A program made the translations under genes and the position numbers. From the NCBI GenBank assembly GCA_964398485.1, contig CAYNMD010000001.1:5072-69071 (forward strand): a stretch of 64,000 bases of DNA, in the 5' to 3' direction. Shown here in pieces: positions 55,851 through 63,118 of the stretch. Numbering within the stretch: position 1 is the stretch's first letter; each line of letters opens with the position of its first letter. Below the pieces are notes generated by a model. It did no database searches, had not been told where the DNA came from, and worked only from the letters and a program-made list of their open reading frames with translations. The stretch comes from an uncultured Bdellovibrionales bacterium (GTDB taxonomy: Bacteria > Patescibacteriota > Minisyncoccia > Moranbacterales > UBA1568).

Positions 55851-55964
55851 GGAAAAATGCCTTAAGAGAGGCAAAATTATACCCTCTGCGGGAGATATTT
55901 TTTGTGGTATAGTCGAGATAAGTAATCGCCATAGGTGCGGTTATGATTCCTCAAGGAGGATGTC

Positions 55965-56207
55965 ATGGATCGCTTTATTTCCGAGTTCATCCTGATGGGT
56001 CTGGTACTTTTCGCTCTCAAGCAACTTGAACCAGTCGCCCTGCGTCTCTTTGGTGTCTTCTGCAGCTGGGTGGCTAGCTGGCCATGGGTGCAGCACCTCG
56101 AGACACGATGGAAGGCGCGCCAGTTGCGGAAACGAGCAGAGGAAGCTTGGGGTACTCGACAGGCGGCTGATGCCTGGGAAAGACGCTTCGGGAAAGACGC
56201 CTCCTAG
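55965..56207 (+). CDS. hypothetical small membrane protein
   Basis: AAGGAGG 5 nt upstream of the ATG; one TM; preferred over the overlapping minus-strand ORF. Confidence 0.3.
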   Translation: MDRFISEFILMGLVLFALKQLEPVALRLFGVFCSWVASWPWVQHLETRWKARQLRKRAEEAWGTRQAADAWERRFGKDAS

Positions 56208-56317
56208 TCGTCCTCGGAGGACTCTCTCTATACCGTCTTTGGTTTCGATAAACCCGAGGCGGTGTTCTTTTTTGAAAAAGGAAAAAGTGCTAGGATGGGG
56301 GCAATTATTGAAATGGT

Positions 56318-57135: not shown

Positions 57136-58350
57136 ATGATAAGTACCCCACGAGAGCCTCTGGCAGAGCGGCGGCGTCCTAAGGCGCTCGAGCAGTTTCT
57201 TGGGCAGGAAAAACTTCTGGGCAAAGGGGCCTATTTACGCCAGATGATAGAACGCGATACGGTTCCCTCGCTTATTTTCTGGGGTCCTCCCGGCTCTGGC
57301 AAAACAACTCTAGCGAGGCTAATAGCTTCTGAGACATCAGCTCATTTTGTTTCGTTGTCGGCGGTTACCAGTGGGAAAAAAGATTTACAACAAGTTCTCG
57401 AACAGGCTGACGTGGCAAGGCGTCTTGGAGAACGGACGATTCTTTTTGTAGATGAAATTCATCGTTGGAATAAGGCTCAGCAGGATGCTTTACTCCCTCA
57501 GGTTGAGAACGGTGTCGTTACTCTGATCGGAGCTACGACCGAAAATCCAAGCTTTGAGGTAAATGCTGCTTTACTTTCACGGGCTCGGGTGGTGGTCTTT
57601 ACCAGACATACTGAAGCGACGACAGTAAAACTTCTTCATGACGCTCTCAGAGAGGATATATATCTCAGTAAAAAGGGCATTGTTTGTACTGAAGAGGGAA
57701 TTGGTTTTATCGCCGCTTTATCAGGTGGGGATGCTCGTGCGGCTTATTCTCTCCTTGAGGCAGTAAGCGAAACAGGTAAGGAAATTACACCAGAGCTAGT
57801 GGGCGAAATCGCTGAAAGGTCACATCTTCTTTACGATAAAGGAGGGGAGGAGCACTACAATTTGATTTCGGCACTTCATAAAGCTATGCGAGGGAGTGAT
57901 GCTGATGCGAGTCTCTACTACCTGGCTCGTATGCTCGAGGCTGGTGAGGATCCGCTTTATATAGCTCGGCGCATTGTACGGTTTGCTTCCGAAGATATTG
58001 GCGTGGCCAATTCTTTGGCTCTCCCGCAGGCAGTGGCAGCCTTGCAAGCCTGCCAAATGCTTGGAATGCCGGAGTGTGAGGTACATTTAGCGCAAGCAGT
58101 AGTCTATATGGCTCTTTCCAAGAAATCAAATGCTCTTTATACCGCTTACGGTAAGGCTAAACAGGATGTCAGGGATTATCCTAATGAGCCAGTACCTCTT
58201 CATCTTCGTAATGCTCCCACCAAGCTTATGAAGACTCTCGAGTATGGTAAAGGATACAAGTATACGCCTGACTACAAAAACAAAAAAGAGGCCGAACAAG
58301 AGTATTTTCCTCAGAAGCTAAAAGGGAGAAAGTATTTGTCTCAGGTTTGA
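57136..58350 (+). CDS. rarA: replication-associated recombination protein A (RarA/MgsA AAA+ ATPase)
   Basis: [32 protein letters not shown]-terminal MgsA helical domain. Confidence 0.9.
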
Positions 58351-58365
58351 TTTTTTCGAAAAAAC

Positions 58366-58484
58366 TTTTTTCTCCCTGAAAGAGGATATGTTTGCGGGCG
58401 TGAAAACAACAGGTCTTTTTATGAGTAATGTAACAAGAGAATTTTCTCTTCCTGAAGCAGGATAGCTTTGCGGTCGAGAGAAAT
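58366..58484 (+). repeat. two tandem copies of an approx. 45-nt motif (TTTTCTCYCCTGAARSAGGATAKSTTTGCGGKCGWGARAA)
   Basis: Hand alignment gives about 75% identity between 58366-58411 and 58442-58484; each contains a short CCTG...CAGG hairpin. Confidence 0.5.
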
Positions 58485-58822
58485 TCACTTGTTAAAGTTT
58501 AATTTTGGTTAAAAAAGAATCAAGGCGCTGCGAGTGATATCGCAAGCGCCGAGATAGGAAGGGGTGATCTTGGTCGCGTTGGACCTTAATCGCCATCAGG
58601 ATTCCAAAGACAGTGCCAGACCAGCCTTTCTACAGGCTTTTGTGGTGGTTGTGGAGCGTTTGGTTTATCAGCTTTCACAACTGATGCTTGTCCCTGGAGG
58701 GGTAATGTAGCGACGTGACTCGCGCTACTCACCAGGTGCCGGTATCCCGGATTTTCCATGGCGAGGCGTTCTCGTAAGTTTGCTCCGTTGAGCATCACAT
58801 TCTCCCAATTGTTGCACAAATG

Positions 58823-58864
58823 AAGAAGCCGGTTCCTTAAGGGGGGAGACCGGCTTCTTTTTGC
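58823..58864 (+). terminator. rho-independent terminator with no upstream ORF >= 60 aa
   Basis: AGAAGCCGGT-loop-ACCGGCTTCTTTTTGCTTT. Confidence 0.6.
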
Positions 58865-59057
58865 TTTCGAAAGTGGAATTCTAGCGTCTACATTCAAGGG
58901 CAAAAACAAAACGGTCTCCTTCGCTCCAGAGGAGGAAGGTGCACATAAGACCCATAAAGATGCGACCGTTTTGTTGCATATGGGAAAAGTATAAAAACTC
59001 TCAAAGAGGATGTCAAATAGGTTTTTGGTCATATGAGTATTGTTTTGGAGTAATTAT

Positions 59058-59086
59058 TTGACATACCAAAAAAAGTGTGTTACCAT
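59058..59086 (+). promoter_or_regulatory. sigma70-like promoter TTGACA-N17-TACCAT
   Basis: Motif about 110 nt upstream of the 59195 ORF. Confidence 0.3.
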
Positions 59087-59194
59087 CCTCAAGCGGTTCT
59101 CGGCCAAGCTAGAGGCGAGAGCTTGAGGTGATGGAGCTGATGGAAATCAGTTTTGTCTATACAACGAACCCGTCAATTTAGGAGATGTGCAAAC

Positions 59195-59458
59195 ATGACG
59201 GATCAACGATTGGGCGGATTCTGCCCGCGAGTACTTGGGGCTTTTCTGCTCAAGGCGGAGGCTTTTCTTCGGAGTTCGGAGAGTGTCTATAGCGGCCTCC
59301 TCAAGATCGCCGAAGAGGTGGCGGCATACAACTTGGCCTATGCGACTGTCCTCATCAAGATGGCCCGGGGTTCCCCCCTCTGCCAAAGCTGGTTCTTCTA
59401 TGCTTTCGAGAAGATGGTCTACACGGCGATGGCTTCTCCGAGTCGGTTGAAATCATGA
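59195..59458 (+). CDS. hypothetical small protein (first of two translationally coupled ORFs)
   Basis: TAGGAGA 8 nt upstream of the ATG; 87 aa; stop overlaps the next start (ATGA). Confidence 0.35.
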   Translation: MTDQRLGGFCPRVLGAFLLKAEAFLRSSESVYSGLLKIAEEVAAYNLAYATVLIKMARGSPLCQSWFFYAFEKMVYTAMASPSRLKS

Positions 59459-59640
59459 AGTCGAAGCTCACAGAGGATGAGGCTTGGCGACTCGCTCGAT
59501 TGATCGCTGGTCTGAAGCGTGCCGGAAGAGGTGCCAAGGCCACAAGGCTTTCCGCGATGCTTCAACCGCTAGCCTGTAGGCGTTTCAAGCCTTCCAATAG
59601 CCATGGCGTCAAGACCCGTCTGAGGACCCGCCCTCGCTAA
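59455..59640 (+). CDS. hypothetical small basic protein (second coupled ORF)
   Basis: ATGA overlap with the upstream ORF; 61 aa, Arg/Lys-rich. Confidence 0.3.
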   Translation: MKSKLTEDEAWRLARLIAGLKRAGRGAKATRLSAMLQPLACRRFKPSNSHGVKTRLRTRPR

Positions 59641-59745
59641 CCTGTACGTTCTCGGCAAGGCCCGAGATCAAGAGACCCTGCTGCGCATTGTCGTGGTAGG
59701 GTCTCAAAATTTTTTATGCTACACTAAGGTCTGAACTTTTTATTT

Positions 59746-60219
59746 ATGCCATATCCAGCCCTGAGAAAAATAGCTCCAGATTTTTGCCTCTTAGATCAGG
59801 AGGGGAAAGAACATACTTTGAAGCAATATCGCGACCGATGGGTTATTCTCTATTTTTACCCAAAAGATGATACGCCAGGCTGTACGGTCGAAGCTTGTAG
59901 TTTTCGGGATAACTTCGCAGCACTCAGGCGATCCGGCGTTGTTGTGTTGGGTGTTTCGGTGGACCCGGTGAAAAAACATGCCAAGTTTGTCGAGAAATAT
60001 GATCTCCCGTTTACGCTACTCGCTGATGAAGAGAAAACAGTGGTCAATCTCTACGGTGTGTGGGGGAAGAAAAAATTTATGGGCCGTGAGTATATGGGGA
60101 CCAATCGAGTATCATTTCTTATTGATCCCAAGGGGAAGCTCGTCAAAATTTATGATTCAGTGAAGCCAGCCGAACACGTAGAAGAAGTTCTCTCTGATAT
60201 GAAATCACTCAATAAATAG
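59746..60219 (+). CDS. bcp: peroxiredoxin Bcp (thiol peroxidase)
   Basis: FYPKDDTPGCTVEACSFRD peroxidatic Cys motif. Confidence 0.85.
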   Translation: MPYPALRKIAPDFCLLDQEGKEHTLKQYRDRWVILYFYPKDDTPGCTVEACSFRDNFAALRRSGVVVLGVSVDPVKKHAKFVEKYDLPFTLLADEEKTVVNLYGVWGKKKFMGREYMGTNRVSFLIDPKGKLVKIYDSVKPAEHVEEVLSDMKSLNK

Positions 60220-61610: not shown

Positions 61611-61790
61611 ATGTCTTCTCGATACTTGGATACTAAGGCTATTGAACGAGAGCTCGAATCTGCTTTGGAGGAATTTCAGATTGCTATACAGGAAATTGAG
61701 CAAAGAACGGGTGATTTAGAGCGAGACTTTATTCAAGCTCTTGAGGCAGAAAAAATTAAAACGGTAAAAAAGAAACTTGGAACGGTATGA
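61611..61790 (+). CDS. hypothetical small coiled-coil protein (59 aa), translationally coupled to the next gene
   Basis: TAGGAGAT then ATG; TGA overlaps the ATG of 61787; below the 60-aa ORF-track threshold. Confidence 0.4.
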   Translation: MSSRYLDTKAIERELESALEEFQIAIQEIEQRTGDLERDFIQALEAEKIKTVKKKLGTV

Positions 61791-63118
61791 GTCGCCTTGA
61801 AGATTTTTCTGAAGTAGCTTGTGATGAGGAAATAGAAAAGAATTTTTCATTGGAGCAAAGTCGATCCCTGAGTGTTTTGCAGAAGATTCTAGAAGAAATT
61901 GAGATTCTCCAGCAGGAAGGTAAGTCTCCTATAAAAAAAAGATTGGAAACAATAATAAGGGGGTTAGTATCTGACGAAGAAGTACAGAGAATTAAAGAAA
62001 AGATAGGCTATTTTGATCGATTGGCAGCAATAGAAAAACAAAGGGAAGGAGCTCAAATAAAACTCCGAGAGCGGATGCGTCGAGTGCTCCTTTCAGTGGT
62101 GACAGCTGCTACGCTTCAGGGTGTTCCGAGCAAGGCTGAGGTTACCCCGGCCACTGCCAAAGTGGTCGTGGCTAGTCAAAATTCTACAGAGGCGAGTGAG
62201 TCAGTCAGTCTTTCTGAAAAATTGCGTTCCCCAGAACTTACTCATCAAGATATTTTTGATACCCAGTCACCTCTTAATGTCACATCAAAAAAACTGAATA
62301 AAGAGTCTCTTTCTCCCGGAGAGTTGGTAATAGTGCATGAACTAGCTAAAAAAGTACGAATGAGTAAGGAGGAATGGGCGGTAGTTTTAGGTAAAAATAC
62401 GACTGGTCGTCTGACCTTTGAGTTATTTCGAGGTACCGAAGATGGTATATTTTTTTCTCTCGAGTCTATGAGGAAAATGGGTGTGACACGTTTTGATGTT
62501 GCGCACACACATCCTCTTTCAGCTGAAGATCTAGAGAGCCATGATCATGAGCTAGGTACCCACAAGCGTTTCCTTTATCCTCCGAGTGCAACTGATATCA
62601 GAACCTGTCTGGTGAATCAAAACCCCTTTAAAGTACACCGAGTAATTGATGCTAGTGGAATGTGGGAATATCAGTGTGATAGACAGAGTCCTCTTGTGGT
62701 TGAAACTGTAACCTCTTTGCAACGTTTAGGAGAAACCTTCGATCAGTTGAGTCAAGAACATAAGCTGACAACTAAAGAGAAACAACAGTTATTGAGAATA
62801 GTAGAAACTTTGTATACTAACTCATTTGCGGTAGTTGCTTTGGCCCAATACTTTACTGCTCTTGAGGAACGTTATCCTGGAATAGATGCGGCAGGGACAC
62901 GAGCTCTCAATGAGCATGCTGAACGAGTCAAAAAACTGTCTGTTGTCTTGATGTCCAATGACTTATACGTCGAGTGGATTAGGAGAAATATGAATAAGTG
63001 GACAGACAGTGAGTTAGCTACACGTCTGCAGTTCTTTGTGCAAGAGGTTGAAAAAAATGGAATATTTATGTCGTATACTCCTTTTAAAGAACTGCCAAAA
63101 CGAGAGGGGGAGAAATAA
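61787..63118 (+). CDS. hypothetical 443-aa protein with HTHP...PSATD (JAMM-like?) motif
   Basis: Long ORF with good coding character; N-terminal coiled-coil region, Ser/Thr linker, C-terminal globular part. Confidence 0.55.
   Translation: MSRLEDFSEVACDEEIEKNFSLEQSRSLSVLQKILEEIEILQQEGKSPIKKRLETIIRGLVSDEEVQRIKEKIGYFDRLAAIEKQREGAQIKLRERMRRVLLSVVTAATLQGVPSKAEVTPATAKVVVASQNSTEASESVSLSEKLRSPELTHQDIFDTQSPLNVTSKKLNKESLSPGELVIVHELAKKVRMSKEEWAVVLGKNTTGRLTFELFRGTEDGIFFSLESMRKMGVTRFDVAHTHPLSAEDLESHDHELGTHKRFLYPPSATDIRTCLVNQNPFKVHRVIDASGMWEYQCDRQSPLVVETVTSLQRLGETFDQLSQEHKLTTKEKQQLLRIVETLYTNSFAVVALAQYFTALEERYPGIDAAGTRALNEHAERVKKLSVVLMSNDLYVEWIRRNMNKWTDSELATRLQFFVQEVEKNGIFMSYTPFKELPKREGEK

Follow-up and report, generated by a model that had tools for sequence, protein, structure and literature searches.

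In a 64,000-nt stretch of DNA from an uncultivated bacterium (contig CAYNMD010000001.1; the whole stretch is referred to here as the window), we examined the spacer between rarA and bcp. Comparison with related loci, which carry L numbers throughout, indicates that this spacer probably holds not one islet but two divergent small-gene units, lineage-specific and vertically inherited within a narrow uncultivated clade. The plus-strand unit is present across the whole clade and contains two overlapping small genes, ORF1 and ORF2. The minus-strand unit is limited to a sub-clade that comprises the window, L093, and L097; it would consist of a short structured RNA that shares its stretch with a 32-codon frame, ORF4, followed by a fast-evolving gene, ORF3. 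An initial annotation, made from the sequence of the window alone, had instead described a GC-richer islet with a likely non-coding RNA (ncRNA) or short peptide, an orphan terminator, and a pair of small ORFs laid out like a toxin-antitoxin system.

RESULTS

Composition and gene calls of the spacer

The spacer is 1,395 nt long and runs from rarA/mgsA (57136–58350; Pfam MgsA_C and AAA) to bcp (59746–60219; AhpC-TSA). Two GC-rich patches were indeed found within it, at 58500–58800 (~0.50) and 59100–59700 (0.54–0.57), compared with a window mean of 0.457. They do not form a single islet, as an AT-richer promoter region at 58800–59100 (GC only 0.41) intervenes and lies between the two transcription units. 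Gene callers applied to the 1.4-kb spacer returned either one 148-aa minus-strand ORF or ORF1 alone. The 148-aa ORF could not be accepted as called, since its frame is broken across the terminator and small RNA region in L093 and L097, and only its distal 69 aa, corresponding to ORF3, are conserved. The features that we recognize in the spacer are collected in Table 1.

ORF1 is a single-copy gene at a fixed site

To place ORF1, we searched 5.8 billion proteins, which yielded 2 clusters. When 1.84 billion representative proteins were searched exhaustively, a three-sequence profile gave only 6 hits, and a nine-sequence profile retrieved 9 clusters, giving 9–11 clusters of ORF1 homologues in total. 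The ORF2 search retrieved one near-identical cluster. The contigs of the ORF1 and ORF2 matches were then fetched, and a metagenome scan gave two extra loci. On every fetched contig, the ORF1 homologue was flanked by rarA and bcp, and the gene order was xth-rarA-ORF1-(ORF2)-bcp-pepA; the window likewise has xth upstream of rarA and pepA downstream of bcp. No paralogue of ORF1 was present in the window or in the related loci. Neither the spacer DNA nor ORF1 had a match in the plasmid or phage collections, and no viral contig encoding a relative was found. The sequence itself occurs in copies of at least 99.9% identity in several metagenome assemblies, and the best matches of RarA among GTDB species representatives were Candidatus Moraniibacteriota and other Patescibacteria metagenome-assembled genomes, at ≤70% identity. 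The ORF families of this locus are small, unannotated, taxonomically restricted, and conserved within the clade.

Locus L006, with a RarA of 65% identity, lies outside the ORF1 clade and has a rarA-bcp spacer of only ~230 nt. Inside this short spacer, at L006:6203–6385, we observed a different ORF of ~60 aa, which is strongly hydrophobic (MMTKKEDTYSYKGWLVSDFIIKRAF...). The rarA-bcp spacer seems to be a recurrent home of small lineage-specific genes.

We next consider whether ORF1 behaves as a coding sequence. Against L093, the proportions of nonsynonymous (pN) and synonymous (pS) differences were 0.24 and 0.64, respectively, and the ratio of nonsynonymous to synonymous substitution rates (dN/dS) was 0.18–0.39 across pairs; pS of rarA and bcp over the same lineage pairs was 0.64–0.76. 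Judged by these patterns, ORF1 evolves as a protein under steady purifying selection, with pN/pS of ~0.4–0.5 for both ORF1 and ORF2. Homologues down to 27% identity retain the GFCP motif, K55, R58, and FERMVY.A. As the initial annotation had supposed, neither small protein belongs to a recognized family: ORF1, ORF2, and their homologues gave no match in Pfam, NCBIfam, PADLOC, or PHROG at E ≤ 0.01, and ORF1 had no sequence match in the PDB. An AlphaFold2 model of ORF1, built from a 10-sequence alignment, is a four-helix bundle with a predicted local distance difference test score (pLDDT) of 76 and a predicted template modeling score (pTM) of 0.61. On the strength of these comparisons, ORF1 defines a small new protein family fixed beside rarA and bcp, and because of this fixation it is probably important to these organisms. 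We also considered ORF1 as an AhpD/CMD-like redox partner of Bcp and rejected this, as there was no CMD match at E ≤ 1, the protein has a single conserved Cys (in GFCP) and no CxxC, and ORF1 and bcp are separate transcription units.

The codon composition of the pair is unusual. GC content at third codon positions (GC3) is 0.67 in ORF1 and 0.60 in ORF2, compared with 0.415 ± 0.05 and a maximum of 0.57 among 23 long window genes, which places ORF1 ~5 SD above the window genes. Such values are atypical enough to raise the alternative that the spacer is a horizontally acquired islet or a mobile-element remnant, which would explain its GC-rich codon usage. This alternative would also fit the short spacer with a different small ORF in L006, the restriction of the left module to a sub-clade, and an insertion sequence (IS) next to the unit in a sister lineage. 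We nonetheless regard it as highly improbable. The ORF1 unit occupies the same site in all lineages, and its divergence tracks that of rarA and bcp. Across the window, L093, L097, L100, L101, L104, and L106, the GC3 of ORF1 stays at 0.55–0.67 against a spread of 0.40–0.68 in rarA and bcp, so that ORF1 is lower than its neighbours in GC-rich lineages; its composition is therefore a property of the gene and not the trace of a recent transfer. This pattern suggests a constraint on codon choice or on synonymous sites. No integrase or adjoining tRNA was found in the window, nothing similar was found in the plasmid, phage, and viral collections, and the sole flanking repeat is one 14-nt pair of 86% identity (58542/59655), of the short two-copy kind that often arises by chance. 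As an insertion scar, this repeat was discounted, being short and imperfect with one copy inside a conserved terminator. The unit is thus not missing from clade members, found at varied sites, or accompanied by mobility features; restriction to a sub-clade applies to the left module alone. It is conceivable that the DNA was acquired once, long ago, at the base of the clade.

ORF2 is coupled to ORF1 but is replaced in some lineages

The overlapping 87-aa and 61-aa ORFs of the initial annotation were confirmed, and their ATGA overlap is kept in the window, L096, L093, L097, L104, and L106; L100 has a 17-nt overlap. The N-terminal ~35 aa of ORF2 are conserved in L093, L097, and L100, with pN of 0.35–0.42 versus pS of 0.71–0.81. 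AlphaFold2 predicted a helical hairpin (H7–22/H26–41, core pLDDT >90) followed by a disordered basic tail rich in Arg and Lys; this 26-aa basic tail is found in the window lineage only. In L104 (3492–3695), L106 (4261–4464), L108, and L109, the second gene encodes an unrelated 67-aa TPR-like helical protein with a 4-nt overlap, which is not a diverged ORF2 homologue (hhalign probability 0.2%). In L101 (4274–4377), ORF1 is present and no second ORF was called.

The initial annotation had likened this layout to toxin-antitoxin or small regulatory pairs. If ORF1 and ORF2 formed a type II toxin-antitoxin pair, or another addiction or defence pair, one small protein would poison growth, and the coupled partner would neutralize it and repress the promoter. 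Two small co-directional genes with an ATGA overlap and their own conserved promoter and terminator are what such a pair would show, ORF2 is basic and helical as in some DNA-binding antitoxins, the second gene is swapped in some lineages, and an IS element adjoins the promoter in a sister lineage. That arrangement was, however, the only one of four testable properties of type II pairs to be found; a known superfamily, a mobile multi-copy distribution, and co-conservation of the partners were not. Searches of Pfam, NCBIfam, and PADLOC matched no toxin, antitoxin, or defence family, and the pair is absent from the plasmid, phage, and viral collections searched. All lineages have one copy at a strictly conserved site, including those whose synonymous sites are saturated, and ORF1 remains under steady purifying selection, persisting in L101 with no called ORF2. 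Taken together, we consider a toxin-antitoxin pair very unlikely.

The plus-strand unit has a conserved promoter and terminator

The promoter TTGACA-N17-TACCAT, which the initial annotation had placed before the small ORFs, was recovered at that position. A promoter scan by itself was at chance level (2 sites versus 1.6 ± 1.5 in shuffled sequences), and for this reason we judged its function by conservation. It is recognizable in 8/8 aligned lineages as TTGAC(A/G)-N17-TA(C/T)(C/T)AT followed by yCTyAAr, and the segment 59052–59100, which takes in both hexamers and the start of the transcript, matches L093 at 93% identity, above any nearby coding segment. The hairpin-containing leader was likewise present. 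Among leaders folded from 7 lineages, each had a 5′-terminal stem-loop, though the sequences differed, and several had a hairpin and T-run ahead of the Shine-Dalgarno site, which suggests mRNA stabilization or attenuation.

A GC-rich hairpin followed by a T-run stands at the same place after the ORF1-ORF2 unit in 7/7 lineages, and its stem differs from that of L093 by compensatory change (GAGACC/GGTCTC to GAGGAC/GTCCTC). With this conserved terminator at its end, the unit would be insulated from bcp, which has its own promoter; the extended −10 of bcp is kept as TGCTACACT, TGCTAGACT, TGCTACAAT, TGCTAGAAT, or TGGTAAAAT in 7 lineages. We also considered the ORF1-ORF2 region as a GC-rich structured RNA, which was rejected given a fold z score of only −0.84 and a clear coding signal.

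Two further observations were made at the ends of this unit. The apical part of the terminator (59684–59696) and the loops of L101, L104, and L106 have similar sequence (GCATTGTCGTGG, GCATCGTTCGTGG) across distant lineages, a conservation that exceeds the needs of a plain terminator loop. At the other end, in a sister lineage that is 95.5% identical from 59052 onward (L087:1–140 and L089:1–142), the 3′ end of a transposase gene (Pfam rve_3, E = 3e-8) abuts 59052, with its terminal sequence EYNFRRPHQALGYQTPI upstream of the −35. The transposase stop codon TGA falls within the TTGACA −35 box, leaving the promoter intact, and eight independent contigs (L085–L092) break within ~40–280 nt of this point, as expected for a multi-copy IS.

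The minus-strand unit begins with a predicted structured RNA

Divergent from the ORF1 promoter is a minus-strand promoter with a predicted start at ~58981; L093 and L097 share both of its hexamers unchanged, but differ in the spacer between them. The rarA stop and the ORF1 start lie 767–846 nt apart in the window, L096, L093, and L097 and only 106–322 nt apart in L100, L101, L104, and L106. As the long distance is confined to the first group, the minus-strand module appears to be an innovation of that sub-clade.

The predicted transcript would begin with an RNA of ~80 nt that folds at −30.3 kcal/mol (z = −3.55). Over 21 pairs in a four-sequence alignment, 95% of cells were paired and 5 pairs had changed on both sides; this covariation score was reached by 0/500 shuffles, and slid controls were 38–66% paired. 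The same stretch is also an open frame of 32–33 codons in the window, L093, and L097, ORF4, whose ATG is 2 nt away from the predicted transcription start. For this frame, pS was 0.33–0.37, so that synonymous sites are far more conserved than those of rarA and bcp, and pN/pS was 0.7–0.85 for the window versus L093 or L097 and 0.38 for L093 versus L097. On these figures we read the segment mainly as an RNA element.

Alternatively, the short transcript could be mainly a leaderless mRNA for the 32-aa ORF4 peptide (MQ..G..F...M..F..W..G.RF.FALE), as opposed to a small RNA or attenuator. The open frame of equal length in three diverged lineages, its invariant ATG beside the predicted transcription start, the conservation that runs beyond the U-run (TTCAAG.GC, encoding FALE), and the low pN/pS between L093 and L097 all speak for a peptide. 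The pN/pS of the window comparisons and the unusually conserved synonymous sites speak against it, as do changes that are compensatory for RNA pairing and the lack of any family match when the ORF4 sequence was searched. In addition, the terminator-like U-run lies within ORF4, and terminated transcripts would therefore have no stop codon. We regard the peptide as a doubtful primary product, though a dual-function RNA and peptide is possible. A CCUCCU in the small RNA was examined as an anti-Shine-Dalgarno regulator of ORF1 and dismissed, as the motif is CUUC or UUUUC in relatives.

Two terminator-like hairpins precede ORF3

Downstream of the structured RNA is the strong hairpin at 58823, which the initial annotation had called an orphan terminator of a plus-strand product. 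The hairpin and its T-run do exist, but it is not an orphan; it lies inside the minus-strand unit and is probably bidirectional, since in L093 and L097, where it is nearly invariant, it stands between an A-run and a T-run. Its minus-strand tail is weaker in the window (CUUCUUCAUUUG). The 58823 hairpin (on the plus strand, and on the minus strand in relatives), the ORF3 terminator (minus), and the ORF1-ORF2 terminator (plus) all have the features of rho-independent terminators, and termination at them is predicted.

ORF3 follows this hairpin. A GGAGA(G) block is found at the place of its Shine-Dalgarno sequence in both L093 and L097. Its N-terminus (MLN.A..R.R.AME.P..RHL.S.AS) and C-terminus (ERLVWHCLW) are conserved around a variable middle rich in Pro and Gln, and tblastn against L097 gave 45.6% identity over 68 aa (E = 3.7e-12). 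The first 27 codons carry 7, 6, and 18 mismatches at codon positions 1, 2, and 3, respectively, pN is 0.38 versus pS of 0.78, and ERLVWHCLW is retained via synonymous changes (AGG/CGA, TGT/TGC). Like the other three ORFs, ORF3 matched no family in Pfam, NCBIfam, PADLOC, or PHROG. In L093, the Shine-Dalgarno site, the start region, and ~12 N-terminal residues are left, followed by divergence. Identity of the left half to L093 is concentrated in 58510–58559 and 58790–59020; 58560–58790 is ~35–40% identical, which is alignment noise, and the window gave no tblastx match to L093 there in any frame. The best-conserved block of the left half is the ORF3 terminator, which is 87–93% identical to L093 in 30-nt windows. 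Its one-sided U-A to U-G change in L097 keeps the pair, and its T-run is kept in L093 and L097. The interval from the 58823 hairpin to the ORF3 Shine-Dalgarno sequence is too short for a promoter, so ORF3 would be transcribed through one or both hairpins, which may together form an attenuating leader.

The initial annotation had read the left half on the plus strand, with a discrete ncRNA or a ≤48-aa peptide ending at the terminator. Its remark that the first 300 nt contain no ORF of at least 60 aa is correct for the plus strand, but the minus-strand 148-aa ORF spans the segment and includes the conserved 69-aa gene. The 48-aa plus-strand ORF (58564–58710) is not conserved, and its GTG start is missing in L097. 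A plus-strand product of 58560–58864, whether a separate ncRNA or an extended rarA 3′ untranslated region (UTR) acting as antisense regulator of ORF3, would account for the plus face of the 58823 hairpin, a textbook terminator with a long T-run, and for the absence of any rarA terminator in a simple scan; the segment also folds better than shuffled sequences (z = −2.83), with much of this coming from the terminal hairpins. We consider such a product improbable. The alignment contains no conserved upstream plus-strand promoter, the interior is at noise-level identity and unconserved in every plus frame, and a coding signature marks a gene on the minus strand, an outcome that the initial annotation had itself named as counting against its reading. 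Rfam gave no match at E ≤ 1 over 57800–60200 on both strands and nothing relevant at E ≤ 5 in six related loci. A transfer-messenger RNA (tmRNA), RNase P, or other known RNA in 58560–58870 was likewise rejected, as ARAGORN and Rfam were empty, with no tRNA either. An antisense transcript from rarA read-through may exist alongside the minus-strand gene.

Table 1. Predicted features of the rarA-bcp spacer, by window position (minus-strand features are given 5′ to 3′)
Feature	Position	Strand	Description
ORF3 terminator	58550–58511	−	Hairpin GGCGCTTGCGA/TCGCAGCGCC at 58550–58524, then TTGATTCTTTTTT at 58523–58511
ORF3	58795–58586	−	69 aa, within the called 148-aa ORF
ORF3 Shine-Dalgarno sequence	58806–58801	−	GGGAGA, 5 nt upstream of the ORF3 ATG
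Strong hairpin (58823 hairpin)	58823–58870	both	Perfect 11-bp arms 58823–33/58849–59, extendable to ~17 bp; plus-strand T-run 58860–58870
ORF4	58979–58881	−	Leaderless, 32 codons, same stretch as the ~80-nt RNA
~80-nt structured RNA	58981–58898	−	Starts at or near its AUG; ends in a U-run
Outer stem of the RNA	58975–58964 with 58916–58905	−	12 bp; plus an inner pyrimidine/purine hairpin
Minus-strand promoter	59016–58988	−	TTGACA-17-TATACT, 11/12 consensus matches
Plus-strand promoter	59058–59086	+	TTGACA-17-TACCAT with upstream TG (extended); drives ORF1-ORF2
ORF1 5′ UTR	59093–59194	+	~100 nt; 5′-terminal hairpin 59095–59123
Second leader hairpin and U-rich tract	59130–59165	+	Fold; hairpin 59130–59157
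ORF1 Shine-Dalgarno sequence	59180–59184	+	AGGAG
ORF1	59195–59458	+	87 aa; N-terminal GFCP and C-terminal FERMVY.AM.P motifs
ORF2	59455–59640	+	61 aa; start overlaps the ORF1 stop (ATGA)
ORF1-ORF2 terminator	59672–59715	+	14-bp stem, then AAAATTTTTT
bcp extended −10	59717–59725	+	TGCTACACT; bcp's own promoter, right-hand boundary of the ORF1-ORF2 unit

Other repeats and small genes around the locus

Between the rarA stop and the ORF3 terminator are two 48-nt direct repeats (58359–58406 and 58435–58482), which share 75% identity and lie 76 nt apart; a single copy is present in L097, and none is recognizable in L093. The fold of this region is unremarkable (z = −0.77), and the repeats were rejected as a genome-wide element, there being no further copy within the 64-kb window.

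A further GC-rich patch (0.54–0.55) at 55900–56300 contains an ORF at 55965–56207 (plus strand) between a radical-SAM (UPF0004) gene and xth. It encodes 80 aa, Trp-rich and partly hydrophobic, unlike ORF1 and without a Pfam match; gene callers report it in the contig of the window as well as in L093, L096, L100, L103, and L104. Just downstream of pepA is a second translationally coupled pair: a 59-aa acidic helical ORF (61611–61790, plus strand) overlaps by 4 nt the start of an ORF encoding 443 aa (61787–63118, plus strand) with no Pfam domain, and the pair is also called in L085, L086, and L101.

DISCUSSION

We propose that the spacer works as two units read away from each other. On the plus strand, a sigma-70-type promoter would give an mRNA with a leader of ~100 nt followed by ORF1 and ORF2; the ATGA overlap would couple their translation, and the conserved terminator would end the unit. 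The two proteins would then be made in fixed proportion and could pack as a small heteromeric helical complex, a proposal to which we give about an even chance. Only tentatively do we suggest a role for such a complex, as a clade-specific regulator or adaptor that possibly binds nucleic acid through the basic helix and tail of ORF2. On the minus strand, in the sub-clade, the second promoter would give a short structured RNA ending in a terminator-like hairpin, which may double as the 32-codon leaderless ORF. Read-through would pass the second, bidirectional hairpin into ORF3, with its own Shine-Dalgarno sequence and terminator, and both hairpins would serve as its attenuating leader. On its plus face, the second hairpin would halt transcripts running on from rarA. 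The two promoters and the three terminators are each conserved, and the changes they carry are compensatory or confined to spacers.

Taken jointly, these proposals would describe a clade-restricted two-protein helical module, not previously described, beside a minus-strand unit of recent origin, where a leaderless RNA or peptide of dual function, with tandem terminators, gates the orphan ORF3. The mRNA of the module would be under selection at synonymous sites, given its sustained GC3, and a promoter and leader more conserved than the coding sequence would hint at a dedicated regulatory circuit. That every part of this joint account holds is unlikely; if it did, it would represent gene birth together with attenuator control in a streamlined genome of the candidate phyla.

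Several points weigh against the account of two units as we give it. In L093, ORF3 has diverged until it is barely recognizable, and it may be frameshifted. The covariation of the ~80-nt RNA draws on three diverged lineages only and is supportive, not conclusive. An obligate ORF1-ORF2 complex is weakened by the lineages in which ORF2 is replaced (L104, L106, L108, and L109) or uncalled (L101), and the fold matches of the models are to generic helical bundles. The persistent high GC3 of ORF1 has no explanation in the account. Lastly, the clade of uncultivated bacteria probably belongs to the Patescibacteria, a placement made through RarA best matches alone.

In the Patescibacteria, 54,343 lineage-specific unknown clusters have been reported (PMC9132574), and our literature search found only general context of this kind. 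Where unknown lineage-specific genes are the rule, the present families are unsurprising, and they reveal no new defence or toxin system. The analysis does correct the annotation of the spacer in this clade of uncultivated genomes, where three or more genuine small proteins, together with a structured RNA, would take the place of a spurious 148-aa ORF or ORF1 alone. With its promoters, leaders, and bidirectional terminators, the locus is also a compact test case for regulation in unculturable bacteria.

The components of the locus can be compared with known systems. Type II toxin-antitoxin operons of HigBA- or MqsRA-like layout, in which the larger gene comes first, have the same overlap of small co-directional genes under a promoter and terminator of their own, and their second product is likewise short, basic, and helical. 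Unlike them, ORF1-ORF2 has no toxin-antitoxin similarity or mobile-element relatives and is fixed, single-copy, and vertically inherited, with a second gene that is replaceable or dispensable. The ORF1 model resembles generic up-down four-helix bundles (Rop-like, de novo designed, and the RPN9 N-terminal domain) at 4–12% sequence identity; Foldseek returned nothing at E < 3, and the likeness is one of fold class only, carrying no functional information. The ORF2 core LI.GLKRAGR..KA.RL can be aligned to a single 35-residue repeat of designer PPR proteins, and its predicted hairpin (H7–22/H26–41) is helix-turn-helix-shaped, like that of PPR/TPR motifs. PPR proteins are, however, tandem arrays, and ORF2 has one unit, worth ~9 bits (i-Evalue 8); the low whole-sequence E-values against designer PPR proteins arise because nine identical repeats are summed in the targets. 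Pfam PPR matches 1/5 members at E = 0.06, and membership was rejected in favour of a motif resemblance only. The minus-strand unit can be compared with bidirectional terminators and tandem-terminator leaders (attenuators). The unit is a candidate attenuator; the minus-strand U-tract of its second hairpin is weak in the window, and no alternative antiterminator structure, sensed ligand, or sensed protein was identified. As in those systems, A-run and T-run flanks are found in L093 and L097, and two terminator-like hairpins lie between the promoter and the ORF3 Shine-Dalgarno sequence.

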